From an uncultured Prevotella sp. (GTDB lineage: Bacteria; Bacteroidota; Bacteroidia; Bacteroidales; Bacteroidaceae), in assembly GCA_964386825.1 (NCBI GenBank), contig CAYLUI010000010.1, forward strand, positions 11,797 to 75,796: a DNA stretch of 64,000 nt. Direction: 5' to 3'. Under the pieces are notes generated by a model. That model saw only the letters and a list, made by a program, of their open reading frames with translations, was not told the origin of the DNA and made no database searches. This document shows, piece after piece, positions 13,334 through 63,934 of this stretch. How positions within the stretch are numbered: position 1 is the stretch's first letter; the number at the start of each line of letters is the position of its first letter. A program made the translations under genes and the position numbers.

Positions 13334-14254
13334 TCACTGTATTTCATCCAAATGTGGCATAGACATCTGAGCACCTACCCTAGTGACAGATATTGACGAA
13401 ACATTATTTGCAAAAGCCAAAGCTGAGTGCATATCCAAACCTTTTATAAGTGCAGCACAAAGAGCGCCGCAGAAAGTATCGCCAGCCGCAGTTGTGTCTA
13501 CAGCATTTACTTTTACCGCAGGCACAGTCATGAGTTCACCGTTTATCATAGCCACGACACCTTTCGAGCCAACGGTGACAATAACATCCTTCACACCTGT
13601 CTTCTGAATACTCACAATTGCCTTTGATATTGACTTATCATCTGAAATAGTGCATCCTGATATAGCTACGGCCTCTGTCTCGTTAGGAATGAGCAAATCT
13701 ACATTCTGCAGCAACTCTTCAAGAATCGGAGTTTTAGGTGCAGGCGCAGGATTAAGCACTACATAGCATCCACACTTTTTTGCCATTTTAGCTGCCACTG
13801 CAAGCGCATTGACTGGGTTCTCTAATTGCATCAACACTATCGATGCACCAACAAACGCTTCACTCGCTTTCTCTATATCTTCTGCATTAATATCGTAATT
13901 TGCACCAGAGTTGACAACAATACTATTTTCGCCACCATCTACCGTCGTTATTAGTGCTACACCAGTAGGCTTGTCATCAGAAGTAAAAAGATAATTCACG
14001 TCTATGCCCTCCCATGATAAATGGGCTATCGTAGACTTGCCAAAATCGTCATCGCCAACTTTTCCTACAAAGGTTGTCGAAACACCAAGTCGTGCAGCTG
14101 CAACAGCTTGGTTTGCTCCCTTTCCACCAAAGTTAGTTATAAAACCATTGCCAATAACAGTCTCTCCAGGTTGTGGGAAATGCGGAGCATGGATTACCAA
14201 ATCCATATTTGTACTTCCAACCACAACCAACCTGCCATTCTTTATCCTTTCCAT
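13334..14254 (-). CDS. rbsK: ribokinase
   Basis: PfkB-family protein with ribokinase-type motifs 'VVVGSTNMDL', 'GGKGANQAVAAARLG' and 'DTTAAGDTFCGAL'. The start is set at ATG M13 because the track ORF begins with TTG at 14290. Confidence 0.85.
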   Translation of the reverse strand: MERIKNGRLVVVGSTNMDLVIHAPHFPQPGETVIGNGFITNFGGKGANQAVAAARLGVSTTFVGKVGDDDFGKSTIAHLSWEGIDVNYLFTSDDKPTGVALITTVDGGENSIVVNSGANYDINAEDIEKASEAFVGASIVLMQLENPVNALAVAAKMAKKCGCYVVLNPAPAPKTPILEELLQNVDLLIPNETEAVAISGCTISDDKSISKAIVSIQKTGVKDVIVTVGSKGVVAMINGELMTVPAVKVNAVDTTAAGDTFCGALCAALIKGLDMHSALAFANNVSSISVTRVGAQMSMPHLDEIQ

Positions 14255-14293
14255 ATAGTTTTTATTGTTATAGGATAATGAAGCCAACAAGAG

Positions 14294-46901: not shown

Positions 46902-47081
46902 TTAGAAGTTACGCTTTTCCAGATAACGTTTCAACTCATCACGAGACATAGGGAGTTTTCCTTTGTAGTTGTCAATCCAATTGAGGAAATCATTCTTTAT
47001 CTCCGTTAACCATACGCTGTCTATCTCGCCAGCTGTGTACTTTTTCTCTTTGATACGCAGTTGTCCAAACTCATCAGTCAT
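46902..47081 (-). CDS. 59-aa ORF translationally coupled (ATGA) to the RraA-like lipoprotein gene
   Basis: Hand translation: MTDEFGQLRIKEKKYTAGEIDSVWLTEIKNDFLNWIDNYKGKLPMSRDELKRYLEKRNF. Its ATG (47081-47079) overlaps the upstream TGA (47080-47078). It is 180 nt long, which is below the 60-aa cut-off of the supplied track. Confidence 0.4.
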   Translation of the reverse strand: MTDEFGQLRIKEKKYTAGEIDSVWLTEIKNDFLNWIDNYKGKLPMSRDELKRYLEKRNF

Positions 47082-47815
47082 AGCAGTAAACTCTGAAGTA
47101 CATTCTTTTTAGCAAGCACAGCATCGCCTGGCAATACAGTAGCATGTCCTATGCGGATAGGAACGTTTATACCCGTCAACAAGGTCTTACGCATGTAAGA
47201 AGGATCTGTGCCTTTCACCCAGCCATTAAATCCTTTTATCTTTTGCAAGCCTTCCCAGTCACGGACGTGACCATAGGCAATGATTCCACGCTTGGAATTG
47301 GAATAGACTCCATTACCTAAATTGGAGCCTATCACTGTACCATACGATTCTTTGCCATAACAGTCAGCTACATAGACATCACCTTCCACTAAGGTCGTAA
47401 TTGCCCAGGAAACGGTACGCTTCTGCCGCCAGTTGCGACCTTCTTTCTTTCCTTCCTCGATGATTTGATTCTCCAGGTCAGGGCGTGCCGGCATAAATTG
47501 TGCCGTCACTGCCCTACCGGTCATTACCGCATCATCTGTGTCATGAATGAGAGCCCAGTCTCCTTCATATTGATTATCGTAGCCCAGCTCTATTAGTTCC
47601 GCCCAAGCTTCCTCAAGCGTCACTTTCTTCAACCGTTCCAATAAATCGTCAGACACTCTTGGCCTGCCATCTGCCATTCTCTCCCCTGTCCATTCTGAAG
47701 TCAGAGCTTTTATGTACTCTGGCGAAGCTCCTACTGTTTGAGCTAACACTGAAGAACAAGACATGCCACAAAGGAGTAGAAAGGCAAATCTAATAAAGAA
47801 ACTGGTTCTTTTCAT
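47078..47815 (-). CDS. RraA-family (class II aldolase/decarboxylase fold) protein with a lipoprotein-type signal peptide
   Basis: Signal 'MKRTSFFIRFAFLLLCGMSCSS'. RraA blocks are 'GDVYVADCYG', 'IIAYGHVRDWEGL' and 'VPIRIGHATVLPGDAVLAKK'. It ends before the usual 'DGVV.VP' strand. Confidence 0.65.
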   Translation of the reverse strand: MKRTSFFIRFAFLLLCGMSCSSVLAQTVGASPEYIKALTSEWTGERMADGRPRVSDDLLERLKKVTLEEAWAELIELGYDNQYEGDWALIHDTDDAVMTGRAVTAQFMPARPDLENQIIEEGKKEGRNWRQKRTVSWAITTLVEGDVYVADCYGKESYGTVIGSNLGNGVYSNSKRGIIAYGHVRDWEGLQKIKGFNGWVKGTDPSYMRKTLLTGINVPIRIGHATVLPGDAVLAKKNVLQSLLL

Positions 47816-49737: not shown

Positions 49738-52700
49738 TTAGAACGTTAAGTTAATGCCAAGCGTAAACTTACGCATTACCGGATAAATAGAGCCACCTTC
49801 ACTAACTCCTACCGCATAGCCACGTATCTGACTATCGGGATGGAGCCCGTCCGGCATATGATTTAGTGAGAACAAGTTCTCACCACCAATGAATACTGAG
49901 GCTGCGCCAATACCACACTTGGCAAGCAACTGATGAGGCAGACTATAGGAAAGCACGAGACTCTTCAAATCAATATAAGCACCATTGAGCAGATATCGAG
50001 TCTGTACTTGTGTGTTTGCAGAAGTATTATATCCATTCTTCGAATAAAGTCGTGGATAGAAAGCATTCTGTTTGTCTGCTCTCCAGTAGTTAAGCAAGTC
50101 GGTATATAAAGCATAATCATTAGCACTTGGAAGCGGTGCTGAATAGCTATTCCACATCCACAGATCACGCTTGCCAACTCCTGAGAACAAGAATGTTAGA
50201 TTCCAGCCCTTCCAACTTACGTTACCGTTAATACCAAAAGTATAGCGTGGGGTGGAATTACCAATGATACGGCGTGATCCTGGGTCATCAACAGTATTAA
50301 GTGATTTCCATACCTTACCGTCAGCATCAGCATTCTTATACATCATATCACCAGGATTAGGTGCAGCACCCTCGAAGTAAGGGATGCCTGGTTTCAACGT
50401 TCCACCAGTCAATTCTCCTGCACCAGTTGTTTTGAGCGTTCCTTCCACGAAATCGTCTACAGTATAGAGTCTGTCACTGACATAACCCCATATCTCACCT
50501 AACTTCATGCCTTCATAATATGGCATGTCAAGGCTCTTGGTAGGGTTGTTATACTTCATTATCTTCGACTGGGCATCACTCAGATTGAAACCGATGCTAT
50601 AAGCTACTTCACCTACCACATCACGCCAATTCATTTGCAATTCCCATCCATACGTACGCATATTGGCGGCATTCTGCAATGGAGCTGCAGCTCCTAGTAC
50701 AACAGGATAGTCTGCACCTGGGCCAAGCATATCAAGAGTTTCACGTCGGAAAATATCAAAGCTACCAGAGAGCCTGTCATCGAACAGTCCCCAATCAAGA
50801 CCGAAATTGGTTGTACGGACTTTCTCCCAAGTGAAGTTTGAACGTACAAGCACAGGAGTAGTGAGTGTAATAGGTCTCTCACCGTTAATTCCCCACATTG
50901 CCCTTGTTGAGTTCATAGTCGGCAAGTATGAATACTCTGCTATATTCTGATTACCTATACTTCCCCAGGATGCACGAATTTTCAAATTAGATATCCACTT
51001 GACATTTCTCAGGAAAGCCTCCTGATTGATACGCCAGCCAGCTGAGAAAGAAGGGAAGAATCCCCAACGGTGACCTTTAGGGAACTTGGAAGAACCATCA
51101 TATCTTCCCGATGCTTCAAGTAGATAGCGATCCATAAATGAGTAGTTAGCACGGTAGAACCATCCCCAGATAGCACTGTCTACATAACTATCATTTGTGG
51201 TAATCAATCCAGTAGCCTGACTGAGTGATGGCAAATTGTCATTAATCATCTCATTGCGGCTCGTAGAAAGCAATTCATATTCGGAGCGCTCAAAATTGGT
51301 ACCGCCGACAAAGGTAAAGTCATGCTCGCCCCACTTATTCTTGTATGTACCAAAAAGATTCAATGCATCATAATCGGTATCTGCCTTTTGAAGACGATAT
51401 ACAGAATAAGGTGTATTTGAAGGAACTAGAGTATTATCACGTGTGTCGGCAAAATCATCAAGTTTCTTATTATACGTCTTATTGGTATAGAATGTCTTAT
51501 TGATAGAGTATTCACCCGTAATGGTAAGTTGCTTGAAAGGCTTTATCAAGACACGTCCTATCATATTTGTCCTGTCATAGCGATTTTTCGCAGGAACAAT
51601 TCTTCTTAAAAAGTTCGCGGGAGTATAGTACTCATAGTAAGTGCCATTTATTGTAGTTCCGTCAGTTGGAGCAAAAGAAGGCTGGAAAATGGTCTGAGCC
51701 CAAATATCTCGGCCATTATTTCCCGATGCATCAGGGTCTGTTTTGTTGCTGTGGGTATACAGTACTGTCAGATCTGTAGTTAACCAATTAGTTATGTCGG
51801 CACTAACAAAAGAACTAATATTGTATCTTCTGAAGTAATCCTTGTTGGTTATAAGTATTCCATTCTGATCCAAATAACCGGCAGAAAAACGGTATTTCAC
51901 CTTTTCACCGCCACCGCTTACTGCCATGTCATAGATTTGCTGGAAACCTGTAGTAAGCATATCTTTTGTGGCATCAGTCTGCTTAAGGAAATAAGGGAAG
52001 CCATCCACCTCTGCATAACCATCTGGATAAGCTGACGGATCAGCCTTATATTTATCCAACAAATCTAGCCATGTGTCATAATCCTGTCCACCTTGGAACA
52101 CCTTATCACCTCTGCTCTTCAATGCGACGATAGTTTCATAAGGTGTTGCACGGGTAGGCAGCTCCTGAGGATTGCTCATCGACAACTTCGTTGACAAAGT
52201 CACAGTAGGCTTGCGTCCATGTTCTGATTTCTTCGTTGTAATAAGTATAACGCCAAATGCTGCACACGCACCATATATAGCTGAGGCAGAAGCATCTTTC
52301 AGTACGGAGACGGATTCTATGTCGTTAGGATTAATTGCAGAAATATCCATAGAGATTCCATCAACGAGTACTAATGGAGAGCCACCGTTGATACTTGAAG
52401 TTCCTCGGATTTGGAAGTTATAGCCAGAACCTGGCTCACCACTATTGCCGGTAAGTACCAAGCCTGGTACGTTGCCTACCAGAGCTTCGGCTATAGAGTT
52501 TACAGGACGGTCGGCTGCTATATCATCCATCTTCACCTGACTGACTGAACCGGTAAGATTGACTTTCTTTTGTGAGCCATAACCTACGACAACAACTTCG
52601 TTTAGCTCTTTCAAGTCGTCTGATAATGCTACGTCTATCGTTGTCAGATTATTAACTACTACCTCTTTAGGGGTATATCCTACGTAGGTAAACACCAGAG

Positions 52701-52911
52701 TTGTACCAGGCGAAGCCTTTACGCTGAATTTTCCATCAATGTCAGTGACACCTACAGTCGTACCATCACTTTTTTTCGTTACACTGACGCCAATTAACGG
52801 GTCATTGTTTTTCTTGTCTATTACATGACCGGTAATAGTCTTGAGGTTCTGTGCCCACAACATAGCAGGCATAAAAACCATCAAGAGAAATAATATTTTT
52901 AGTTTGGGCAT
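49738..52911 (-). CDS. SusC-type TonB-dependent transporter
   Basis: Start at ATG M40 ('MPKLKILFLLMVFMPAMLWAQ'). CarboxypepD_reg 'ITGHVIDKKNNDPLIGVSV', plug 'VVVGYGSQKKVNLTGSVS' and C-terminal 'TLGINLTF'. Confidence 0.9.
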   Translation of the reverse strand: MPKLKILFLLMVFMPAMLWAQNLKTITGHVIDKKNNDPLIGVSVTKKSDGTTVGVTDIDGKFSVKASPGTTLVFTYVGYTPKEVVVNNLTTIDVALSDDLKELNEVVVVGYGSQKKVNLTGSVSQVKMDDIAADRPVNSIAEALVGNVPGLVLTGNSGEPGSGYNFQIRGTSSINGGSPLVLVDGISMDISAINPNDIESVSVLKDASASAIYGACAAFGVILITTKKSEHGRKPTVTLSTKLSMSNPQELPTRATPYETIVALKSRGDKVFQGGQDYDTWLDLLDKYKADPSAYPDGYAEVDGFPYFLKQTDATKDMLTTGFQQIYDMAVSGGGEKVKYRFSAGYLDQNGILITNKDYFRRYNISSFVSADITNWLTTDLTVLYTHSNKTDPDASGNNGRDIWAQTIFQPSFAPTDGTTINGTYYEYYTPANFLRRIVPAKNRYDRTNMIGRVLIKPFKQLTITGEYSINKTFYTNKTYNKKLDDFADTRDNTLVPSNTPYSVYRLQKADTDYDALNLFGTYKNKWGEHDFTFVGGTNFERSEYELLSTSRNEMINDNLPSLSQATGLITTNDSYVDSAIWGWFYRANYSFMDRYLLEASGRYDGSSKFPKGHRWGFFPSFSAGWRINQEAFLRNVKWISNLKIRASWGSIGNQNIAEYSYLPTMNSTRAMWGINGERPITLTTPVLVRSNFTWEKVRTTNFGLDWGLFDDRLSGSFDIFRRETLDMLGPGADYPVVLGAAAPLQNAANMRTYGWELQMNWRDVVGEVAYSIGFNLSDAQSKIMKYNNPTKSLDMPYYEGMKLGEIWGYVSDRLYTVDDFVEGTLKTTGAGELTGGTLKPGIPYFEGAAPNPGDMMYKNADADGKVWKSLNTVDDPGSRRIIGNSTPRYTFGINGNVSWKGWNLTFLFSGVGKRDLWMWNSYSAPLPSANDYALYTDLLNYWRADKQNAFYPRLYSKNGYNTSANTQVQTRYLLNGAYIDLKSLVLSYSLPHQLLAKCGIGAASVFIGGENLFSLNHMPDGLHPDSQIRGYAVGVSEGGSIYPVMRKFTLGINLTF

Positions 52912-52948
52912 AATTGTGATTATATTTTTTAAGGTAATTAATAAAGAA

Positions 52949-53788
52949 TCATAGACCAGAATCACTAAGGAAACCTCCGTCAACAGGAACTGTGATGCCA
53001 GTAACAAAACTTGCCTTCGCATCGTCAATCAGCCAATCTATGCATCCTACCAGTTCATCAGCCTCGCCGAAACGTCCCATTGGGGTGTTATGAATAATAT
53101 TAGCACCACGACTACTGTAGCTACCATCAGAGGTGAGAAGTAACTTACGACTACGGTCGTTGAGAATAAAGCCCGGAGCAACCGCATTAACGCGGATGTT
53201 TGCCGGAGCCAGATAGGCAGCCAGCCATTGCGTGAAGTTGGATATACCAGCCTTGCTCAGAGCATACGCCGGCACTCGCGAAAGAGGACGATAGGTATTC
53301 ATCGAGGCAAAGTTGATGATATTGCCGCCACCTGCTTCTATCATGTCCTGAGCAAAGAGTTGTGATGGTATCACTGTTCCCATTATATTTACATTTATGA
53401 CATCAAGGAAACGCTCTGTGTCAAGATTGAAGAAACCTCGGACTCCTTCTGCGCCTTGCAGCTCTTTCTGGTCATAACGGTTAATGGTACAGACTGCATC
53501 AGGCTGATTGCCTCCAGCTCCATTGATGAGCACCGTGCACAGCCCTACCTCAGAGCGTACCCTATTGCGAAGAGCCTCAACCTGCTTGCGGTCTTTAACA
53601 TCGCAAGTCATTGGTATGCACTTGCCTCCATCCTTGAGGATGTTGGCTTCTGTTATCTTAAGTTTCTCTAGGCTGCGGCCTACCAGTACCACAGTATATC
53701 CTCTATTTGCCAGCACACGTGCAACTACGGAGCAAATAGTACCCCCAGCACCAGTTACTACTACAATTTTGTTTTCCATAAGTTTCAT
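52949..53788 (-). CDS. SDR-family oxidoreductase (UxuB-type fructuronate/D-mannonate oxidoreductase candidate)
   Basis: Cofactor motif 'VVTGAGGTICS' and catalytic 'YALSKAG'. No signal peptide. It is adjacent to uxaC. Confidence 0.75.
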   Translation of the reverse strand: MKLMENKIVVVTGAGGTICSVVARVLANRGYTVVLVGRSLEKLKITEANILKDGGKCIPMTCDVKDRKQVEALRNRVRSEVGLCTVLINGAGGNQPDAVCTINRYDQKELQGAEGVRGFFNLDTERFLDVINVNIMGTVIPSQLFAQDMIEAGGGNIINFASMNTYRPLSRVPAYALSKAGISNFTQWLAAYLAPANIRVNAVAPGFILNDRSRKLLLTSDGSYSSRGANIIHNTPMGRFGEADELVGCIDWLIDDAKASFVTGITVPVDGGFLSDSGL

Positions 53789-53811
53789 CTTCAAATGTTG
53801 GTATAAATAAG

Positions 53812-55182
53812 TTATCTTTCAAAACACCATTGTTTTGGATTGTCATAGCATATAGCTTTAATTAGATGTCCTATCCACTTCTCATCACAAGGGAATATTC
53901 CAGACTGCATTTTCTCTGTCACAAAAGAGCAAAGTATGCGACGAAAATAATCGTGACGCGAATATGATAACAAGCTACGCGAATCTGTCGTCATGCCTAC
54001 AAAGTGACTCAAGAGTCCATAGCTTGCGAGAGTGCGGAGCTGGCTTGTAATTCCCAGCAAGTGATCATTCCACCACCAGGCTGGTCCCAACTGTATCTTT
54101 CCAGAAACGCCATCTTCTGCAAACGAGCCAGTCAGCGTTGCTAAAGCTGCATAATCTGACGGATTGAGCGAATAGAGTATAATCTTTGGCAGTGTACCTG
54201 CCTTCTCTGCATCATCAAGCAATTGCACTATACTGCCAATATCGCAAGGACTGCCTATAGTAGCATAGCCGCCTGCCGCTCCAGTAAGTGTACGCAATCG
54301 GCTGCTTGTATAGCGTTGCGCCCCTATGTGCAGTTGCACTACCCAATGGCGTTTAGCATACATTTGCAGAAGTTTGTGGAGCACGTATGAGCGCAACTGC
54401 ATAAGTTCCGTTTCCGTAACTTGTTGGTCTTTCAACAGACGGTCAAAGATTCCTGACGCCAATGAAGGCTCTGGCAGCTCATAACGATAGCCTGCATCGA
54501 GAGCATGGTCAGTTATACGGCAGTTAACCGAATGGAAATCGTCAATACGTTGTTCTACTGCTGCGAGGTAAGACAGAAGGTCATCAAACCGCAACTGTGC
54601 CATCCAGTCTTTGCGGAATGCCAGTATACTATCGCCTCGCAGTGATGGTCGAACCTCAATACCAGACTTCAGACTTGCCTTATGATGCAGGCTGACATCA
54701 CTGAGCAAATCATCTGATGTGCAAGCAGTCTCCACATTCCAGAACTTCAACAGTGATATTGGAGTGACTGAGCGTTCAGCAAGCTGCCGGTTGCACTCAT
54801 TCCATACAGCCTCACCATTATCTGCCGACAGAAGTTCATCAATGCCAAAGCCCCTTTTCAATTCCATTGCTGACCAGTGAAACAATGGATTGCCCAATGT
54901 GTAAGGGCACGTCTCAGCCCACGCCATAAACTTGTCATGAGTAGAGGCATTTCCTGTAATGCAGCTTTCTGGCAAGCCATGTATACGCATTGCCCTATGC
55001 TTATACGGATCAGCAGCAACCCAAATAGCACCAATATCAGTAAGAGGATTGTTGTCAGCCAGACCATGAGGGTCAATATGACTGTGATAGTCCACTATTG
55101 GCAACGCCTTGGCATAGTTCTCATAGAGACTGGCTGCCAGATCGCTCGTGAGCATGAAACGCTCTGTTATAAACTCACTCAT
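53812..55182 (-). CDS. uxaC: glucuronate isomerase
   Basis: 456 aa. The N-terminus 'FITERFMLTSDLAASLYENYAKALPIVDYHSHIDP' matches the UxaC pattern, including the 'DYH.H' metal motif. Confidence 0.9.
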   Translation of the reverse strand: MSEFITERFMLTSDLAASLYENYAKALPIVDYHSHIDPHGLADNNPLTDIGAIWVAADPYKHRAMRIHGLPESCITGNASTHDKFMAWAETCPYTLGNPLFHWSAMELKRGFGIDELLSADNGEAVWNECNRQLAERSVTPISLLKFWNVETACTSDDLLSDVSLHHKASLKSGIEVRPSLRGDSILAFRKDWMAQLRFDDLLSYLAAVEQRIDDFHSVNCRITDHALDAGYRYELPEPSLASGIFDRLLKDQQVTETELMQLRSYVLHKLLQMYAKRHWVVQLHIGAQRYTSSRLRTLTGAAGGYATIGSPCDIGSIVQLLDDAEKAGTLPKIILYSLNPSDYAALATLTGSFAEDGVSGKIQLGPAWWWNDHLLGITSQLRTLASYGLLSHFVGMTTDSRSLLSYSRHDYFRRILCSFVTEKMQSGIFPCDEKWIGHLIKAICYDNPKQWCFER

Positions 55183-55194
55183 AGTAGTAACAGC

Positions 55195-55923
55195 TTAAAA
55201 ATAGCCCCCGTTCTTTACCATTTCAACAGCTGAGAAGCCTGGGCTAACCCATCCGCGCATCTCACGTTCATTGCGTTTTATCTCCTCTGCCCTTAGCAGC
55301 ACGTCGTAGGCTATTGCACGCGGCACTACCACTACTCCATCAATGTCTCCAAAGATGACATCTCCCGGTTTAATGTAAACCTTGCCTATGCGCAAAGGCA
55401 CCTGATAGCCGGTAATCTTAGTACGGCCTAAAGAGCCATTTGATGAACGGTAGCGGTAGAACACAGGAAAGTTCAGAGCCAACACCTGCAAGGTGTCACG
55501 CAGACCTCCGTTGATGACAGCGCAGCGCGCTCCACGTGCGATAGCCGATGCCGTCATAACCTCGCCCCAGTGGGCTGCCTCTACTTCTTCACCGGCATCC
55601 CACACAACGCAGCAGCCTTTAGGCATGGCATCTAACATCTGTGCACGGTAGTCCATCTCACCATCTACTGTCGGGTCTGGATTACTTCTGATGGTAAATG
55701 CAATGCCACATGTAGGCTTTTCCGTGCGAAGAGGTATAATATTGACGGGTAATGCCTGATCCATGAAAGTAAACTCACGCAAAACATCATTCACTGCACC
55801 GGTATAAAGTTTCTCATAGCGGTCGCACAATTCACTTTCAGAGATAGGAAACTCTGTATTGTCTACCTTATCAAGCTTTTCGCGGAGCTTGTCAAGATTC
55901 ATCATATTCTTGTTCTGACTCAT
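55195..55923 (-). CDS. RraA-family protein (putative 4-hydroxy-2-oxoacid aldolase/oxaloacetate decarboxylase fold), cytoplasmic
   Basis: Blocks 'CVVWDAGEEVEAAHWGEVM', 'VINGGLRDT', 'NFPVFYRY' and 'VPLRIGKVYIKPGDVIFGDIDGVVVVP'. No signal peptide. Confidence 0.8.
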   Translation of the reverse strand: MSQNKNMMNLDKLREKLDKVDNTEFPISESELCDRYEKLYTGAVNDVLREFTFMDQALPVNIIPLRTEKPTCGIAFTIRSNPDPTVDGEMDYRAQMLDAMPKGCCVVWDAGEEVEAAHWGEVMTASAIARGARCAVINGGLRDTLQVLALNFPVFYRYRSSNGSLGRTKITGYQVPLRIGKVYIKPGDVIFGDIDGVVVVPRAIAYDVLLRAEEIKRNEREMRGWVSPGFSAVEMVKNGGYF

Positions 55924-55936
55924 TTTGTATAATGTT

Positions 55937-56905
55937 TTATTTTACATTGCTTTTTTCCATTAATCCTTTCAGGTAACCTGTGGCAAAGATGTGTCCCAGC
56001 ATCTCGTATGCCGGATTGTCTCCGCTCTCTCCTGCCATGACAGGGGCATGATCTGTTCTGACGATACCGTTAAAACCTACTTCATCATAAGCCTCAACAC
56101 AAGCTTTCATGTCTGTCATGCCCTCATCATGGAATGTTTCCTGAAACTTCTCTGCCGTTCCCTTAAGGTCTCGGAAGTGCACAAAGAATATTTTCTTCAT
56201 TTTTCCATAGTGACGAATCACTTCCGGGATATTTTCACCCATTGCGGCAAAGGAGCCTTGGCAGAGCGTTATACCGTTGTATTCACTGGGATAGAGTTCA
56301 AGGGCTTTATCGATATTCTCCACACTACGGAAGATGCGAGCCACACCTTGCAGTTTTGGAACTGGCGGATCGTCTGGATGCAACGCAAGTTTAACCTTGC
56401 AATCTTCTGCCACAGGCAGTATCCGGTCCATAAACCACTTGTAGTTATCCCATATTTTCTCATCGCTGACATCTTCCGCTTCAGTGCGTAAAGGTGCTTT
56501 ATCAACAAGTGAAGCATCGAAGGCTGTCACCAAGGCTCCGCCTCTTCCTCGCTTTGAAAATGAAGTACGAAACCAGCCTGACTGTGGCATGAAGTTGTAG
56601 CACATTGTGGATATATGGAGTGCCGACATATTTTTGAGCACTTGCTTGAAATGCTCCAGTTCCTCCTCACGGCCGGGGAGTCCGAGTTTTATGTGGTAGT
56701 GTGGCGGCGCTGGCTCAATGACCTGAAGGTCTAAGCCTGCATCCGCCAGGCTTTGTTTGGAATAGAGCATCGCCTTGAAGTCCCACGGCTTCATGTAGTA
56801 TTTCTCTGGAGGCAAGGCCGCAACGGCATAGTCTACTCCCAACTGCTTTGCCACCTGCCACTTAATGCTGGGCAATGTGGGCAAATACCATGCTATTTTC
56901 ATCAT
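55937..56905 (-). CDS. uxuA: mannonate dehydratase (short form lacking the insertion domain)
   Basis: It aligns by eye to E. coli UxuA at 'STMCYNFMP' (compare 'RTVCYNFMP'), 'LALHPDDPPVP' (compare 'MAVHPDDPPRP'), 'ITLCQGSF', 'IFFVHFR' and 'IVRTDHAP' (compare 'IPMRPDHGH'). Confidence 0.82.
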   Translation of the reverse strand: MMKIAWYLPTLPSIKWQVAKQLGVDYAVAALPPEKYYMKPWDFKAMLYSKQSLADAGLDLQVIEPAPPHYHIKLGLPGREEELEHFKQVLKNMSALHISTMCYNFMPQSGWFRTSFSKRGRGGALVTAFDASLVDKAPLRTEAEDVSDEKIWDNYKWFMDRILPVAEDCKVKLALHPDDPPVPKLQGVARIFRSVENIDKALELYPSEYNGITLCQGSFAAMGENIPEVIRHYGKMKKIFFVHFRDLKGTAEKFQETFHDEGMTDMKACVEAYDEVGFNGIVRTDHAPVMAGESGDNPAYEMLGHIFATGYLKGLMEKSNVK

Positions 56906-58575
56906 GATTTTAGAATTTTCTTTTTTGTTTTACGCTGTTTTAAATACAATAGTAATGAGAATATCAGGCACATCACTCCGGCTATCTCACCATACAGTCC
57001 ACCTGTCTCATGGATTGACGGAATGCTGATACCGCAGAACATTAATCCTGAAACGAGCATTGCAAAGACAAAGACATGCGACAGTGTGTACTTATAACTT
57101 TCTGAAATGACTGGTTTGTCTGCTTCAGCAATAGGTTTGGCAAGCTTCTCAAAGAAGGCATCACGTTCAGGAGTATGTTTCTCTTTCTCACCAATCCAGA
57201 GAGGATATAAGTATATTACGAAGCAGATCACTATCTCTATGCAGGTAGCCATCTCCCAAGAGAGTTGAGGCAACAGGTTAAGCACTATGCCAGAAGCAAT
57301 GCCAATGCTCATAGTGAGCACCACCGAGGTTTGGCTAGGACGACGACATACAATGCCCAGCACCAAAGGTATGCCTATTGGTATGGCGAGGATGCCTGTA
57401 AACAACTTATTAGCTTCAAAAGCTCCACCAAAGCCTCGTATGCCTATAGCACCTATAATAATCAGTATGCCTACGAGTACAGTTGACAGACGACCTACTA
57501 CTAGCAGACGGTTTTTGCTTGCTTTGCAGTCCATCATACGGGCATACACATCATTGGTAAGCACACTTGCCATGATGTTATACTCTGAATTGAGTGATGA
57601 CATTGTAGCTGCAAACATCGAAGAGAACATGATTCCCATTAGTCCGACAGGCAGCAACATTGATGAAACCGCAACGTACGACATTTCAGGGTCTGCTATC
57701 TTTGGAATGATGAGAGGCGAGGCTACAGCTGGCAAAAGGAATATAGGTGTGAATACAAAGAACAGGACACCACTCCAAAAGCCAACGTTTGACGCTGATT
57801 TCTCGTCACGAACACAATAGAACTTCTGTATGAATGTCCAGTTCTCATTGTATTTTATAATTGTCATAATGCCGTAAATCGTCAGCCAGAACCATCTTCC
57901 GTCCGGTCCGTTAAACCATGTCATGTGGTCAGGCATCTGTGCTTGCAAAGACCCAATGCCCCCAACCTGACCCAATGTCAGCGGTAGCAATATTAGGGTA
58001 ATGAGTATGAGTATGATAAACTGTACAGTACTCATGATAGTCACAGTCCAGATTCCACCTATGAAATTGAAGGCTGTCACCACAATACCTGAAATCACTA
58101 TAGCCCACTCCAAAGACAATGGCGTGACAACCGTAATGAAGACTCCTATGGCATACAGTCTGACCATATTGTCAAGGAAGCGCATAAATAGTCCGGCAAA
58201 GGTCATAAACTTCCTCACTCCATAGCCATAGCGCACCTCAAGATACTGCATAGGCGTGGAGTGGCCGGTGCGACGCCAATAGCGTCCAAAGAACACACCG
58301 CCAATGACGCAGGCTGGCACTGTTGTCCAGAACACAGTACATGCCACAAGTCCCCACTTATAGGCTATGCCGGCATAGGCTACGAAGACGAAGGTACTGA
58401 AAAGCCCCATAAAGTTGGTGATGGTTGCCATTACCCAAGGAATGGCACCTCCTCCATTAAAATAGGAACCAACATCCTTGACCAATCTGCCAAAAGAAAA
58501 GCTGATGACTCCCATCAAGACTATGTAGATGAAGACAGCTACATAGTCTAGTTGCTGAAGCATTAAACTGTCCAT
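56902..58575 (-). CDS. sodium:solute symporter family (SSF) transporter
   Basis: 557-aa polytopic protein (about 13-14 TM segments) with an SSF-like N-terminal half. Its stop overlaps the uxuA start by 4 nt. Confidence 0.8.
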   Translation of the reverse strand: MDSLMLQQLDYVAVFIYIVLMGVISFSFGRLVKDVGSYFNGGGAIPWVMATITNFMGLFSTFVFVAYAGIAYKWGLVACTVFWTTVPACVIGGVFFGRYWRRTGHSTPMQYLEVRYGYGVRKFMTFAGLFMRFLDNMVRLYAIGVFITVVTPLSLEWAIVISGIVVTAFNFIGGIWTVTIMSTVQFIILILITLILLPLTLGQVGGIGSLQAQMPDHMTWFNGPDGRWFWLTIYGIMTIIKYNENWTFIQKFYCVRDEKSASNVGFWSGVLFFVFTPIFLLPAVASPLIIPKIADPEMSYVAVSSMLLPVGLMGIMFSSMFAATMSSLNSEYNIMASVLTNDVYARMMDCKASKNRLLVVGRLSTVLVGILIIIGAIGIRGFGGAFEANKLFTGILAIPIGIPLVLGIVCRRPSQTSVVLTMSIGIASGIVLNLLPQLSWEMATCIEIVICFVIYLYPLWIGEKEKHTPERDAFFEKLAKPIAEADKPVISESYKYTLSHVFVFAMLVSGLMFCGISIPSIHETGGLYGEIAGVMCLIFSLLLYLKQRKTKKKILKS

Positions 58576-58581
58576 TGATAT

Positions 58582-61500
58582 TTAGAGAACTCCTTTATCA
58601 ACAATCATAATTGGAGAATCATAGACTGGCACCTTGCCGATGATAGTTTTATTACTACTTGTTGTTACCAGTGATGAAGGTATCTCATATACGTTACCCG
58701 TTAGGACATCAACACATACAGGCTGCTGCATGGCTGCGTTTATCGTCAATGTGGTATAGCTCATGCTGTTGGTATTCTGTGGTATTTTGCTACCATCCCA
58801 ATAGAGGACACTGATATTGCCTTTAGCGTCAGAGTATGTATTCACACACATCCCTTCACCATTCTTGCCAATAACAGAAGTTCTGGCAGGTTGCAGGTTC
58901 TTGAAATGATGGAAGAGTGATGCATAGTTCTGCACGGCACGGTATGCCACCTTAGGACGTACAGCCTCCTTAAGTGGACTCGACTGCAACAATCCCTTCA
59001 CATTGATTGTTGACACATATTTGTTTTCGCCATTTGGATAGACCATATCAATGATTGAGAACACACTAGATTCCACTCCATGAGCATGGTCACCAGAGAG
59101 ACGGCGCAAATCCCATTTAGCCTGAGAGAGTTCTGTCCAGTCATAGTCCGTCAAAGCTCCACCTTTATGACCTTGTGATGGTGCACCATTCTCGCCCTGT
59201 CGAAGTTTAAGTCCTGGTGCTTTCTCACTTATGATGGTCTTGAATGCTTCCACATCTTTATATGCGTCTTCCGGCCGGTAAGTATAGCCGTGATAAGAAA
59301 TCCAATGGAACAATCCCAACTTGTCTGTCGCCTTGATCTTGTCAAGACACTCAGTCAAAAGTTCCTTGTTGAGTACACAGAAAGCCAATCCTGCTATGCG
59401 GCACTGTGGGTCAACAGACTTAAGCATAGATGCTGTACGGACATTCATGTCCACAATGGCATCTGCGTCTATCTTTCCGCTCAAGTCCGGCTCATTCCAA
59501 ATCTCCCAATCGCTCACTCTGCCACGGAAGTGCTCTGCAAGGGCTTTCACCCAGTTGTCCCAAGCCTTCTTTGCTTCCGCCGACACAGGCATTCCACCAC
59601 CGAGGTTGGCATTGCCACCACCTTCATATATTGGATTGCCGTAGCTCGTCTGCAACCAGATGCGATGACCGCGTGCAATGGCATCATCAACAATATGGTC
59701 AAGCCATGAGAAATCGTAAACGCCTTTCTGACGCTCTGTTTTTGCCCAACCTGCCTGCATGCGCAGATTCTTAATACCAAGTTTCGGAAGATATGCCTTA
59801 TAAGCATCATAATCTGTATAATCACGGTCGAAAGTCTCACATCCCACTGTCAGAAGGTCTGTTCTAGCCTGGTTAACGTTCAATGGCTTTACACTGTCCA
59901 CTTTATTATATCCATTGGCAAGTATAAATTTCGGAGTCATCTGCACAAGAACTGTTGTGCCTTCTTTCAAGAGATTGGCAGTAGTATTGACAGTAATACC
60001 ATTATAAGAGACTGTGATGTCATACTCGCCAAGATGCGCCTTGCCTGTAACATCACCATTCCTGTCACTCTTCTTTTCCCATTTTGTAGTCCATTCGCCA
60101 CAAACCAACTGCTGCCACGCACGCCCGTTGGCTTTCAATGTCCAATCGCTTCTGAACAAAGCAGCATTTGGTTTCCAATGGCGTTTCTGCCAAAAGCCCC
60201 AAAGGTTGACACCATGCACTGCCGGATGACTGTAAGCTGCAATGAGGAAGTCGCGAGTGTAATCTGCCTGCAAATCCTCATCATCGGTATTAATGTCAAA
60301 CTCCGTTATCTGCACGGGTATATTTTCCTTGTAGAACATATCCAGGTCAGAGAGCACCTGGATAGGGCTTCGAGGCTGTGCGCCTACATGTCCCTGTACT
60401 CCTGCAGCCTCAACAGGTGCGCCTTTAGAGCGAAGATCCTTGATGATATTAATGTACTGGCTGATGACCAACGGACTCTGAGTTCCGTTGAGCATGCCAT
60501 AGTCGTTTATGAACAACTGTGCGTCAGGGTCAAGCTTCTTAGCCTCTTTAAACCACTCTACGGCCACATCCTTTGGTAAATACTTGAAGAAGTCCTTCTC
60601 ATGCATCATCTCATTAACCACATCCCAGGCTATGACCTTACCCTTGGTGTATGCCATTCGCTCATAAAACTGTGCCTGAATGAACTTTCGGAACACCGCC
60701 GTATCCCGCTCGGCTATGAGACGCATATATCGAGGATTGAACTTCCAGCCAGGCCATACGAGATTGTGGCCACGCTGACGCATTCCGTTTTTATAGAGCC
60801 AGTCGAAAGCTTTCAGCGTCTGCTGCTTATGCTTGTCGTCCCACGACCAGCCATAAGTTTTGAATCCGTTCTCCATAACGGCTGTATTGAAGAATTGCAA
60901 CAGCTTTTGCTTATAGGTCTTTGCATCAGCATCGTCTGAAGCCAATGTTTCCTCATTGACCGCCGTTCCCCAGATGAATGCAGAGCGACGCATCTTGATT
61001 TTCACATCAGCTCCTTTTATTTCATTTCCTTTGGCATTTACAACATGCACCATAAGTGGAGCTGTACGAAGTTGGTCTATTCGCTTCAATGCCTCTGTAC
61101 GCCAAGCGGCTCCTTCCTCTCGACCTGCATAAGTAAGACGGGTCTTGGGCAAATCTTTAGCCTCAAGGCTATGATGGTAATTGCGAATTTCCACGCCACC
61201 GACTTGTACTTTCTGTGTTAATGTTGCGAAAGCCAACACAGCAACAGCCTCACCAGCGCGAAGGTCAGTAGAAGCGGTAAACGGGAATGTGAAGGTCTTC
61301 CATTCTGCACCATCATTGACTTGTGTGACAATGCTCTTCTCCCAGGGGCTCACGGCCCTCTGGAAATAGAACTGTATCGAAGACTCGCCAGTCTCCTGCC
61401 TGGCATAGACGGTGCGAACTGTTACGACAGCCTGCAGAACATCGCCTTTCTTGACATCAGATGTTGAGCGGAACTTAAGTTCACAATTGTAATAATCGCT

Positions 61501-61716
61501 AGATGCTTTAGTGTTTTCAACTTCCAAAGCCTTCTTTCCATCTTCTGTAATGATAAGGCGGCACGATGATAATAGTCCGCCATTGCGGCTGTCCTGAAAT
61601 ATATAGTCCTTCCCCATACCATTCATTGCCGCCACTATGTCGTATGACTTTTTCTGAGCCCATACTGTCAATGAAAGCATCAGACAAACAAGAGAGAATA
61701 GTGTTTTTTTAATCAT
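58582..61716 (-). CDS. multidomain secreted glycoside hydrolase: CBM4_9/22-like, GH10 xylanase, beta-sandwich, second clan GH-A catalytic domain
   Basis: Signal peptide. The GH10 blocks are 'RGHNLVWPGW', 'WDVVNEMMHE', 'INDYGM', 'GVQGH' and 'ITEFDINT'. The C-terminal roughly 440 aa show 'LRMQAGWAKTERQKGVYDFSWLD' and 'WEIWNEPD' (GH5/GH30/GH39-like). Confidence 0.8.
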   Translation of the reverse strand: MIKKTLFSLVCLMLSLTVWAQKKSYDIVAAMNGMGKDYIFQDSRNGGLLSSCRLIITEDGKKALEVENTKASSDYYNCELKFRSTSDVKKGDVLQAVVTVRTVYARQETGESSIQFYFQRAVSPWEKSIVTQVNDGAEWKTFTFPFTASTDLRAGEAVAVLAFATLTQKVQVGGVEIRNYHHSLEAKDLPKTRLTYAGREEGAAWRTEALKRIDQLRTAPLMVHVVNAKGNEIKGADVKIKMRRSAFIWGTAVNEETLASDDADAKTYKQKLLQFFNTAVMENGFKTYGWSWDDKHKQQTLKAFDWLYKNGMRQRGHNLVWPGWKFNPRYMRLIAERDTAVFRKFIQAQFYERMAYTKGKVIAWDVVNEMMHEKDFFKYLPKDVAVEWFKEAKKLDPDAQLFINDYGMLNGTQSPLVISQYINIIKDLRSKGAPVEAAGVQGHVGAQPRSPIQVLSDLDMFYKENIPVQITEFDINTDDEDLQADYTRDFLIAAYSHPAVHGVNLWGFWQKRHWKPNAALFRSDWTLKANGRAWQQLVCGEWTTKWEKKSDRNGDVTGKAHLGEYDITVSYNGITVNTTANLLKEGTTVLVQMTPKFILANGYNKVDSVKPLNVNQARTDLLTVGCETFDRDYTDYDAYKAYLPKLGIKNLRMQAGWAKTERQKGVYDFSWLDHIVDDAIARGHRIWLQTSYGNPIYEGGGNANLGGGMPVSAEAKKAWDNWVKALAEHFRGRVSDWEIWNEPDLSGKIDADAIVDMNVRTASMLKSVDPQCRIAGLAFCVLNKELLTECLDKIKATDKLGLFHWISYHGYTYRPEDAYKDVEAFKTIISEKAPGLKLRQGENGAPSQGHKGGALTDYDWTELSQAKWDLRRLSGDHAHGVESSVFSIIDMVYPNGENKYVSTINVKGLLQSSPLKEAVRPKVAYRAVQNYASLFHHFKNLQPARTSVIGKNGEGMCVNTYSDAKGNISVLYWDGSKIPQNTNSMSYTTLTINAAMQQPVCVDVLTGNVYEIPSSLVTTSSNKTIIGKVPVYDSPIMIVDKGVL

Positions 61717-61723
61717 CGATTTG

Positions 61724-63934
61724 TCAATTATCTAATGTTATTTTTATTTTCTTATCTTTTACCATTATGTAGTAGTCACCCGACTCCAATATTTTTTCTC
61801 CTTTATCGTTGACATAAGACAGATTATCCTCCGGCACCAAGTTGAAGACAAACGTCTCTGTTGTACCTTTGCGGATGTTGCGTTTCTCGAAATGCAGCAA
61901 CTCCTTGATTGGTCTCGTTATGCTGCTCACAGGGTCGCGAACATACCACAGTACGGTTTCCTTGCCATCCATGGCACCGTTGTTGGTAACGTCAACACTT
62001 AGTCTGAGCGTATCACCGCGATGTACTGTCAAACTTGGGACATTTATATCTGAATAATCATACCTGGTATAACTCTATCCATAACCAAAATCGTATAATG
62101 GCTTACTGTTAATATCCTGATAAAGTCCCATAGTAGGACGACTGCTCTGCCGTGCATTATAATAAATAGGTATCTGCCGAGTGTCAAGTGGGAAGGTAAT
62201 GTTCAATCGTCCGGAAGGGTTGACCTTGCCTGATATGATGTTTGCCATAGCCGTACCTCCACATATTCCCGGTTGCCAAATCTCCAATATAGAATTGCAC
62301 AATGGTTCCAGGCGCACCAGCTCTGTAGGTCTGCCTGCTGATAGTACGAGAACAATAGGCTTGCCTGTTTTTGCAATTGCTACTACCAGTTCTTCCTGTA
62401 TCTGAGGCAATGCAATAGAAGCCCGCGAAGCATTCTCGCCACTCCAAGCAGCTCTCTCGCCCATCATCATAACCACTACATCAGCCTGCCTTGCAACTTT
62501 TTCTGCCTCTGCAAAGCCTGAACGGTCAATTGAATCGAAGTCGCAGCCACGGGCATAAAGCAGTTTCTCTTTACCAAAGACTTTTTCCATGCCTTCATAA
62601 AGTGTCTCGGCATCCTTGTCGCAACCGAAGCAACGCCACGAACCGATTATCTCATGCAGGTCTTTTACCATAGGACCGATGAGTGCTATGCGCTTATTAC
62701 TACCCAGAGGCAACAAGTTATTGCTGTTTTTCAACAAAACCATACTCTCCTCTGCCATACGCTCAGCCAAAGCTTTATATTCTGGCTTCAACACTCGCTG
62801 ACTTTCGGGAAGTTCCTTAGTATAGGGATTTTCAAAGAGTCCAAGTTCAAACTTCACCTTTAAGATGCGGCTTACAGCAGTGTCAACAGTTTGCATGGAT
62901 ACTTTGCCTTCATTGATTAGCTTTGGAAGATAGTCAAGAAAGCATCTGTCAAGCATATCCATGTCCAGTCCTGCATTAAGAGCCAATCGGGCACAGTCCT
63001 TACGATCGGCAGCATAGCCCTGTGATATAAGTTGAAAGACTGCCATCCAGTCGCTCACCACAAAGCCAGGCATCCCCAACTGTCCTCTCAACACATCGGT
63101 AAGATAATGGTGGTTTGCTGTTGCCGGCACACCATTGATGTCATTGAAAGAACTCATCACCGTCCTGGCACCTGCCTTTATTGTAGCAACGTAAGGCGGG
63201 AGATAGGTATCCCACATGGATTGGTCAGCAATCTGCGTGGCTGTGTAGTCACGACCTCCTTCACTCATGCCATAGCCCACAAAATGTTTGAGGCAAGCCA
63301 CAACCCTGTCTGGCGCAGAAATTGTATCACCTTGATAACCACGAAGTTCAGCCACACCAAGTGTAGAGACAAGATAAGGGTCTTCACCAAATCCTTCCGA
63401 CACACGTCCCCAACGAGGGTCATGGGTGATGTCGAGCATTGGTGAGAACACCCATTCTGTGCCCGAGGCACGCGCCTCTTTTGCTGCCATATGAGCAAGT
63501 TGCTCTACAAGCTCAGGATTCCACGAACAACCTTGAGCAAGGGGAATAGGATAAACAGTGCGGAAACCATGAATGACATCGTAGCCGAAGAGTACCGGAA
63601 TACCAAGACGTGTCTGCATGGCACGCCTCTGCAGCCGGTTGCGCTCTACGGCATTGTCATTGAAATTAATAACAGAACCAACCAACGGAGAAAGTTCATT
63701 CTCCCTGCCATAACTTATGTTGTTGATATTGATGTTTGAGCCTATCAGGAACTGGTTGAGTTGATAAACCTTTTCTTCCACAGTCATGCGTGAGAGCAAA
63801 TCAGCCACTCTCTCATCGACAGGCAGGTCAGCGCGCTGATAAGGCAGTACGCTCTTCTTAGGTTGGGCAGCAAACACAGATAAGCTCAAAGCAAAAGATA
63901 GCAGTAATGCAATGCAATTTGTTGATTGTCCCAT
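61724..63934 (-). pseudogene. GH3 beta-glucosidase/xylosidase interrupted by one in-frame TAG (62075-62077)
   Basis: The GH3 catalytic part shows 'GFVVSDW' and ends '...PLYDFGYG*'. The same frame continues 'SYTRYDYSDINVPSLTVHRGDTLRLSVDVTNNG...', which is the Fn3-like GH3 C-terminal domain (track ORF 61724..62032). The TAG sits where GH3 enzymes have Leu ('GYGLSYT'). Confidence 0.8.

Follow-up and report, generated by a model that had tools for sequence, protein, structure and literature searches.

An RraA-like protein in a polysaccharide-linked uronate cassette of an uncultured Prevotella as a candidate 2-keto-3-deoxy-aldonate aldolase

A stretch of 64,000 nucleotides from an uncultured Prevotella sp. 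(GenBank assembly GCA_964386825.1, contig CAYLUI010000010.1, positions 11,797 to 75,796), called the window here, carries a five-gene cassette in which an RraA-like protein is encoded among enzymes of uronate catabolism. From its active-site residues and its recurrent genomic partners, this protein may be a metal-dependent 2-keto-3-deoxy-aldonate aldolase, a prediction that we regard as evenly balanced. Residues conserved with the HMG/CHA aldolases (for 4-hydroxy-4-methyl-2-oxoglutarate and for 4-carboxy-4-hydroxy-2-oxoadipate), in a protein whose neighbours include dehydratases and no kinase or other aldolase, are what a non-phosphorylative aldolase of 2-keto-3-deoxy acids would be expected to look like. 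The cassette is a divergent, paralogous module linked to a polysaccharide utilisation locus (PUL) and stands beside a canonical route in the same genome; to read it as the hexuronate pathway of this organism with a single step exchanged would be wrong.

Open reading frames (ORFs) of the window were listed and scanned with Pfam and NCBIfam models at curated cut-offs. The cassette consists of five minus-strand genes with a spacing of -4 to about 20 nt, between SusC (49738-53028) and an enzyme that contains a domain of glycoside hydrolase family 10 (GH10). This tight packing had been noticed in the original prediction, and both the ORF listing and the domain scans bear it out. The cassette genes and the adjoining enzyme are as follows.

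52949-53794, minus strand: UxuB-type short-chain dehydrogenase/reductase (SDR) of the fructuronate/mannonate oxidoreductase class; NF006132 (D-mannonate oxidoreductase), 339 bits against a cut-off of 281.
53812-55182, minus strand: UxaC-type uronate isomerase, cassette paralogue; PF02614, 486 bits; NF002794 (glucuronate isomerase), 406 bits against 387.
55195-55923, minus strand: RraA-like protein, 242 aa; PF03737, 105.6 bits against 24.5, residues 43-199, E 4e-30.
55937-56905, minus strand: short UxuA-type dehydratase, 322 aa; PF03786 in two stretches; NF003027, 224 bits against 191.
56902-58575, minus strand: SSF sodium:solute symporter; PF00474, E 5e-30; 4-nt overlap with the UxuA start.
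58582-61716, minus strand: secreted fusion enzyme, 1044 aa, with a GH10 domain (about residues 200-585) and a GH39-like domain (residues 603-1044).

The probable ATG start of the SDR is at position 53788. Cassette homologues of the Ashwell pathway steps UxaC, UxuB and UxuA all score above curated NCBIfam thresholds; the short UxuA lies under the equivalog cut-off of TIGR00695 (155 against 199.6 bits) and is a mannonate dehydratase at the subfamily level only. It aligns to the UxuA proteins of S. suis and E. faecalis (3BAN, 1TZ9) but is missing about 30 residues internally and also those of the N-terminus, and is 80% identical to the copy in the Bacteroides uniformis cassette. Inspection of the N-termini of the four cytoplasmic cassette enzymes revealed no signal peptide, and the SSF symporter is presumed to be the inner-membrane importer of the cassette substrate. 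The terminal Ashwell enzymes, KdgK and KdgA/Eda, are not encoded near these pathway genes. As had been noted, neither is found anywhere in the window, whose sole PfkB gene (13334-14290) is a ribokinase (TIGR02152, 345 bits against 300); whole-genome searches place both on contig 16 only.

Residue conservation was tabulated in 81 sequences of the RraA-like family. Arg-142, Asp-143 and Glu-219 align to Arg-123, Asp-124 and Glu-199 of Pseudomonas putida's HMG/CHA aldolase (PDB 3NOJ), Glu-219 doing so in profile and single-sequence alignments, and Gly-120 and Gly-163/Ser-164 align to its Gly-101 and Gly-144/Thr-145. The residues R142, D143, E219, W119, G120, M123 and G163 are invariant (81/81), and S164 is present in 78 of 81. 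The catalytic arginine and the metal ligands, which the original prediction had pointed to as residues to check, are conserved in all 81 sequences. In the P. putida enzyme Arg-123 is essential and Asp-124 and Glu-199 are metal ligands, and two metal-site motifs have been described for HMG/CHA aldolases (PMC5065237). Among solved structures HLB5 (PDB 5IR2) is the closest; it forms a hexamer, has the fold of HMG/CHA aldolases and binds tartrate in the pyruvate site, and its tartrate-binding residues are the equivalents of W119, G120, V122, M123, R142, G163 and S164 in the window protein (bioRxiv 10.1101/516542). The family divides into halves named after short motifs, 'HWGE' (the window protein, with His-118 and Glu-121) and 'LWGG' (HLB5), and both occur in UxaC cassettes.

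No NCBIfam model scored above its cut-off with the RraA-like protein. The LigK/PcmE equivalogs gave 83.9 against 304.5 bits (TIGR02798) and 86.9 against 179 bits (NF006731), so that the protein appears to resemble LigK/PcmE in function at most and lies outside that orthologous group. PRK08245 (NF006093) gave 104.4 bits against a cut-off of 208, and the RraA equivalog NF006875, which describes a protein of about 160 aa, gave 34.9 bits against 136 with the 242-aa window protein.

A profile of the family was used to fetch 80 loci, in which neighbours were counted by tblastn within 6 kb of the RraA-like gene. All five cassette genes were found together in 26 of them, in at least four gene orders, and because the genes recur in this way the arrangement is not a matter of chance. 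These loci come from Bacteroidales, Prolixibacteraceae, Flexithrix, Flavobacterium, Neolewinella and metagenome-assembled genomes (MAGs) of Cytophagales, Rhodospirillales and Lentisphaeria, and the SSF symporter co-occurs with the cassette in at least 23. Contigs of B. uniformis have the five genes in the order seen in the window, within a PUL that also encodes SusC/D, GH3, GH92, a GH42-like gene and a GH39-like enzyme that is secreted; the RraA-like protein of B. uniformis is 84% identical to that of the window. Only 4 genomes out of 301, sampled evenly from the same order, carried the family, a sporadic distribution, and the family is probably mobile together with PULs. The cassette UxaC (53812-55182) is about 50-53% identical to the Bacteroides cassette UxaC (L008, 8729-10126), compared with 71-84% for the other four genes, and this difference suggests that the isomerase gene was replaced inside an otherwise conserved cassette.

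Outside the cassette, family members of 56-71% identity are found in clusters headed by an IclR-family regulator in Lentisphaerota, Kiritimatiellota, Verrucomicrobiota, Planctomycetota, Spirochaetota, MAGs labelled Bacillota, Rikenellaceae and Cytophagales. These clusters encode an acid-sugar dehydratase, either of the enolase superfamily (two subgroups) or of the IlvD/EDD type, a glucose-1-dehydrogenase/Lra1-type SDR, in some cases a lactonase with the SGL or metallo-beta-lactamase fold, and often a GH10-like enzyme that has no signal peptide. Across the 80 loci an acid-sugar dehydratase lies near the RraA-like gene in 62, an SDR in 65, UxaC in 26 and a lactonase in 6; KdgK/Eda was found in a single locus. 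The dehydratases are of four unrelated kinds, namely the short UxuA, the two enolase-superfamily subgroups and IlvD/EDD, and no other aldolase family or sugar kinase was seen among the annotated recurrent neighbours. Regulators of the IclR family accompany many of the loci; KdgR, which senses 2-keto-3-deoxy-gluconate (KDG), is a member of that family.

The chemistry upstream thus varies around a constant RraA-like protein, being either UxaC with a reductase or a dehydrogenase with or without a lactonase. In a maximum-likelihood tree the RraA-like proteins cluster by taxon and not by context, and the isomerase-type and oxidative-type contexts intermix: a Lentisphaeria protein from a UxaC context is nested among enolase-context proteins, and enolase-context proteins of Rikenellaceae and Cytophagales are sister to the Bacteroidales cassette clade. 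The simplest reading of this pattern is that one conserved activity acts on the product of whichever dehydratase is present, which would be a 2-keto-3-deoxy sugar acid.

Several of the individual loci deserve description. In a Cytophagales MAG (L099, 10707-13488) the lactate utilisation genes lutA-lutB-lutC lie directly 3' of an RraA-like gene of 71% identity, in a cluster that also encodes an MFS transporter, IclR, an enolase-superfamily dehydratase, an SGL lactonase and an SDR; this content hints at a 6-deoxyhexose as the substrate there. Four Victivallis loci (L053, L054, L062 and L086) have both an enolase-superfamily dehydratase and a short UxuA in one IclR-headed cluster, which also includes the RraA-like gene, a D-2-hydroxyacid dehydrogenase, an SDR and a GH10-like gene that lacks a signal peptide. 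In L063 the trio of short UxuA, RraA-like protein and SDR is paired with a GH38 alpha-mannosidase.

The window belongs to contig 10 of an assembly of 2.85 Mb with 95% completeness, and the canonical uronate genes are distributed over other contigs. On contig 16, eda (NF005499, 369 bits) directly adjoins a PfkB gene of the KDG-kinase type, and kduI and a kduD-like SDR lie beyond a transporter gene. Contig 36 encodes a second, canonical UxaC, which scores 658 bits with the family model compared with 486 for the cassette UxaC, and contig 20 encodes a full-length canonical UxuA of 421 aa. The cassette copies are 37% (UxaC) and about 30% (UxuA) identical to these. Given the canonical UxaC, UxuA and kdgK-eda, the cassette genes are deep paralogues, and the possibility that they form the only hexuronate route is excluded. 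Such deep paralogy suggests that the substrate is neither of the usual pair, glucuronate and galacturonate. The original prediction had placed the RraA-like protein where KdgK and KdgA were missing, and had named kdgK-eda elsewhere in the genome as one half of what would count against it; since the pair is encoded on contig 16, the idea of a replacement is abandoned. What stands of the proposed non-phosphorylative cleavage is its agreement with the active-site residues and with dehydratase neighbours that lack a kinase or another aldolase. The contig 16 locus (L007, 6066-12891) also places kdgK-eda beside a lone membrane protein resembling EIIC of a galactitol-type phosphotransferase system (TIGR00827, under the cut-off), unusual as the transporter of a Bacteroidota uronate locus, and its SDR is of the kduD/idnO-like type.

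The pathway that we propose would begin in the periplasm, where the GH10/GH39-like enzyme would release an acidic sugar that the SSF symporter would import. UxaC would convert the uronate to a keto-uronate, the UxuB-type SDR would reduce this to an aldonate of the mannonate type, and the short UxuA would dehydrate the aldonate to a 2-keto-3-deoxy-aldonate, either KDG or a close relative. The RraA-like enzyme would then carry out a retro-aldol cleavage to pyruvate and an aldehyde, which would be D-glyceraldehyde if the acid is KDG. A class II mechanism dependent on a divalent metal is envisaged, in which Asp-143 and Glu-219 would bind the metal and Arg-142 would stabilise the enolate of pyruvate. 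The result would be a phosphorylation-free branch parallel to the canonical UxaC/UxuA and KdgK/Eda of the same genome; its reaction, substrate and direction of flux are inferred, whereas the gene content and its conservation, the paralogy, the conserved active site and the association with dehydratases are observed.

As to the substrate, stereochemical reasoning indicates that, with a reductase of the D-mannonate type, KDG would be the common end point for D-glucuronate, D-galacturonate, D-mannuronate, L-iduronate and L-guluronate, so the pathway does not tell which uronate enters it. Candidates weighed were L-iduronate, 4-O-methyl-glucuronate, an unsaturated uronate (DKI) and glycans of the glucuronoxylomannan type, of which the first two would still lead to KDG.

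A number of findings weigh against cleavage by an aldolase. Besides the kdgK-eda pair of this genome, Eda (PF01081) was found in all 53 other family-bearing genomes searched (23 with the cassette and 30 with the oxidative context), so that an aldolase would be dispensable for completing the pathway if the product is KDG, and an obligate replacement of Eda at the genome level has no support. In the single locus with KdgK/Eda nearby (L033), kdgK-eda adjoins the cassette with a divergent IclR gene in between. A search of the own genome for an aldehyde dehydrogenase gave nothing convincing (PF00171, one partial match of 27 bits on contig 12), which leaves the fate of a glyceraldehyde product unexplained; contig 29 encodes a glycerate kinase of the GarK type. 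The metal-site motif of this class reportedly reads D-x20-R-D or G-x20-R-D-x2-E/D (Mazurkewich 2014). In the window protein the corresponding stretch is E121-x20-R142-D143, so that Glu stands at the position of Asp-102 of 3NOJ, and about half of the family has G121 yet carries Q146 where the motif in that wording has E/D. The only published activity for the family is a doubtful 'cellulase' claim. Finally, an RraA-fold enzyme with a 2-keto-3-deoxy sugar acid as its substrate is known in FlDet of Flavobacterium sp. UMI-01. It works as a dehydratase/decarboxylase with specificity for 2-keto-3-deoxy-hexarate and has no activity on KDG (PMC8563752), which shows dehydration and decarboxylation to be further reactions open to the fold.

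It is accordingly worth asking whether a 2-keto-3-deoxy sugar acid is the substrate of the RraA-like protein in a reaction other than aldol cleavage, which we consider unlikely but worth serious attention. Possible roles are those of a FlDet-like dehydratase/decarboxylase, of a hydrolase of 2,4-diketo-3-deoxy acids yielding pyruvate and glycerate or lactate, or of a C4 epimerase working through an enolate. FlDet, which converts 2-keto-3-deoxy-glucarate by dehydration and decarboxylation and leaves KDG uncleaved, is the only RraA-fold enzyme characterised on such an acid, although the N-terminus of the RraA-like protein is unlike the published N-terminus of FlDet, orthology between the two is unsupported, and an alpha-ketoglutarate-semialdehyde dehydrogenase is not recurrent in the clusters. 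A diketo acid could be made by the SDR, the most constant partner (65/80, compared with 6/80 for the lactonase), and a hydrolase with an acid product would suit lutABC directly after the Cytophagales RraA-like gene, the 2-hydroxyacid dehydrogenase near the Victivallis genes, and an own genome with a glycerate kinase and no clear aldehyde dehydrogenase; NCBIfam also lists a model for fusions of FAH-family and RraA-like proteins (NF009399). The isomerase cassette, however, has a lone SDR, which passes the cut-off of the mannonate oxidoreductase model and which the UxaC route requires, and there is no spare 4-dehydrogenase. A further explanation, which we judge rather improbable, is that the cassette is a second Ashwell-type route to KDG that ends in KdgK and Eda, the RraA-like protein being an accessory that decarboxylates oxaloacetate, removes a side product, or serves as a regulator or chaperone for the short UxuA. 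Eda in every family-bearing genome tested, kdgK-eda adjoining the cassette in L033, and the passing of NCBIfam thresholds for canonical activities by UxaC, the SDR and UxuA are all compatible with this, and HMG/CHA aldolases also decarboxylate oxaloacetate (PMC5065237). An accessory of this kind sits poorly with the retention of the RraA-like gene in 26 of 26 cassette loci despite reshuffled gene order and with its invariant substrate-site residues, and a helper specific to UxuA is countered by its travelling with unrelated dehydratases in clusters that have no UxuA. The same enolase-superfamily and IlvD/EDD associations led us to set aside a two-subunit UxuA-RraA dehydratase.

Two other readings can be dealt with more briefly. 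HLB5 was reported to be active on carboxymethyl cellulose and pretreated Miscanthus and was deposited as 'Cellulase' (bioRxiv 10.1101/516542), from which the window protein could be taken for a non-canonical cellulase or glycosidase. It has a hydrophilic N-terminus and no signal peptide, Pfam and NCBIfam find no GH domain in it, and its genomic partners are sugar-acid enzymes; moreover, the only ligand site in the 5IR2 crystal is the aldolase pyruvate site with tartrate, and the authors found no catalytic residues (bioRxiv 10.1101/516542). Localisation, domain content and the kind of ligand site lead us to reject this reading, which we rate as very improbable. For HLB5 itself the cellulase assignment is unlikely because the protein is cytoplasmic, has no GH domain and presents a carboxylate-binding aldolase pocket. 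That an RraA-type inhibitor of RNase lies at the cassette by chance is suggested by the PF03737 fold. Against it, the protein reaches 35 bits with the RraA equivalog where 136 are needed, has extra N- and C-terminal segments amounting to about 80 aa, and keeps its linkage to sugar-acid genes across several phyla. The model scores led to its rejection, and we give it hardly any probability at all.

Evidence for the glycosidase partner comes from both of its domains. The GH10 domain was assigned with PF00331 and PDB 7D88 (E 8e-57). The GH39-like domain, encoded by nt 58585-59910 on the minus strand, has weak matches to GH39 beta-xylosidase and PslG in a PDB search, and the nearest clusters in the ESM Atlas are named GH39. 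It is 58% identical to a stand-alone GH39-like protein of the Bacteroides loci, which is secreted, measures 477-691 aa and lies immediately 5' of the cassette; from this identity the window enzyme is recognised as GH10 fused to the glycosidase that usually partners the cassette. Of the 80 loci, 20 encode the GH39-like protein. In Lentisphaerota clusters, signal-less GH10-like genes stand beside the RraA-like gene instead.

Two further features of the window were recorded. A second RraA-fold protein (47078-47815, minus strand, 245 aa) with a lipoprotein-type signal is encoded directly after SusD; it scores 66 bits with PF03737 and 73 bits with PRK08245 (under the cut-off), its similarity to the cytoplasmic copy is marginal (BLASTP, 30 bits), and the two are the genome's only PF03737 genes. 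Upstream of the GH10/GH39-like gene, two minus-strand ORFs in the same frame (61724-62032 and 62075-63934) have coordinates 351 nt apart. The upstream ORF of this pair (62075-63934) holds GH3 N- and C-terminal domains, which is consistent with a GH3 gene split by an in-frame stop.

If the aldolase prediction is extended to all its members, the family would be an unrecognised, widespread class II 2-keto-3-deoxy-aldonate aldolase that completes sugar-acid routes without a kinase in glycan-degrading bacteria of at least six phyla, the routes being fed by uronate isomerisation, as in the window cassette, or by aldose oxidation. We put this broader claim at a little short of an even chance. Were it true, 5IR2 would be a mis-assigned 'cellulase' and a structural-genomics annotation would be corrected, and the family would be a third structural family of 2-keto-3-deoxy-sugar-acid aldolases beside DHDPS/NAL and HpcH/HpaI. 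Gut Bacteroides would own a branch of uronate catabolism that is non-phosphorylative and linked to a specific GH39-like glycosidase and acidic glycan, in the form of a portable five-gene module attached to particular PULs in species that include B. uniformis, B. intestinalis and B. timonensis, and the module could mark the acidic glycan that those PULs target. If the aldolase prediction is wrong, the family still marks an undescribed step after sugar-acid dehydration in many bacteria.

Literature searches on RraA with non-phosphorylative pathways, mannonate dehydratase, PF03737 and 5IR2 turned up no paper that characterises the family as an aldolase or gives it a role with sugar acids, the nearest reports being the HLB5 preprint and the FlDet paper. 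In a haloarchaeal mannan cluster, manD has been drawn beside an RraA gene (PMC10963439). Points to be singled out are the cluster version with the isomerase route (UxaC/UxuB/UxuA), the evidence for one RraA clade in both routes and the link to PDB 5IR2.

Compared with known systems, the cassette resembles in plan the Ashwell pathway (UxaC-UxuB-UxuA-KdgK-KdgA/Eda), whose first three steps are recognisable and whose intermediate KDG would be expected. It differs in that its copies are deep paralogues, UxuA is shortened and KdgK/Eda are outside the cluster, and in having an integral, conserved RraA-fold enzyme and an SSF transporter. The archaeal non-phosphorylative Entner-Doudoroff route with its KD(P)G aldolase, the Dahms route (YagE/YjhH) and the LRA1-4 route (YfaU/LRA4) follow a dehydratase with a kinase-free aldol cleavage, and the oxidative-context clusters of the family are like them in carrying a dehydrogenase, a dehydratase and sometimes a lactonase. 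The known aldolases of those routes belong to DHDPS/NAL (class I) or HpcH/HpaI (class II TIM-barrel) and are not known to have the RraA fold.

Among RraA-fold proteins, FlDet is likewise a Bacteroidota enzyme of uronate-glycan catabolism that is stimulated by divalent metals; it belongs to another subfamily, its published N-terminus differs from that of the window protein, and it is not clustered with UxaC, UxuB and UxuA. HLB5 of Parabacteroides johnsonii DSM 18315 aligns without gaps over residues 6-221 (E 1e-75), shares the Arg/Asp pair and the tartrate-binding residues with the window family, has no signal peptide, and is encoded in a glycan-utilisation cluster with xylanases. It differs in having been called a cellulase from crude activity assays and in belonging to the 'LWGG' half where the window protein belongs to the 'HWGE' half. 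The HMG/CHA aldolase (LigK/ProA/GalC; P. putida F1, 3NOJ), a class II pyruvate aldolase, is distant (E 9e-12) and agrees with the window protein in fold, catalytic Arg and metal-binding Asp and Glu. It serves aromatic (protocatechuate/gallate) catabolism with tricarboxylic substrates, and its phosphate-site Arg-195 corresponds to Ile-215 in the window protein. If the aldolase prediction holds, the cassette would be a case of a class II pyruvate aldolase fold put to use in sugar-acid catabolism.

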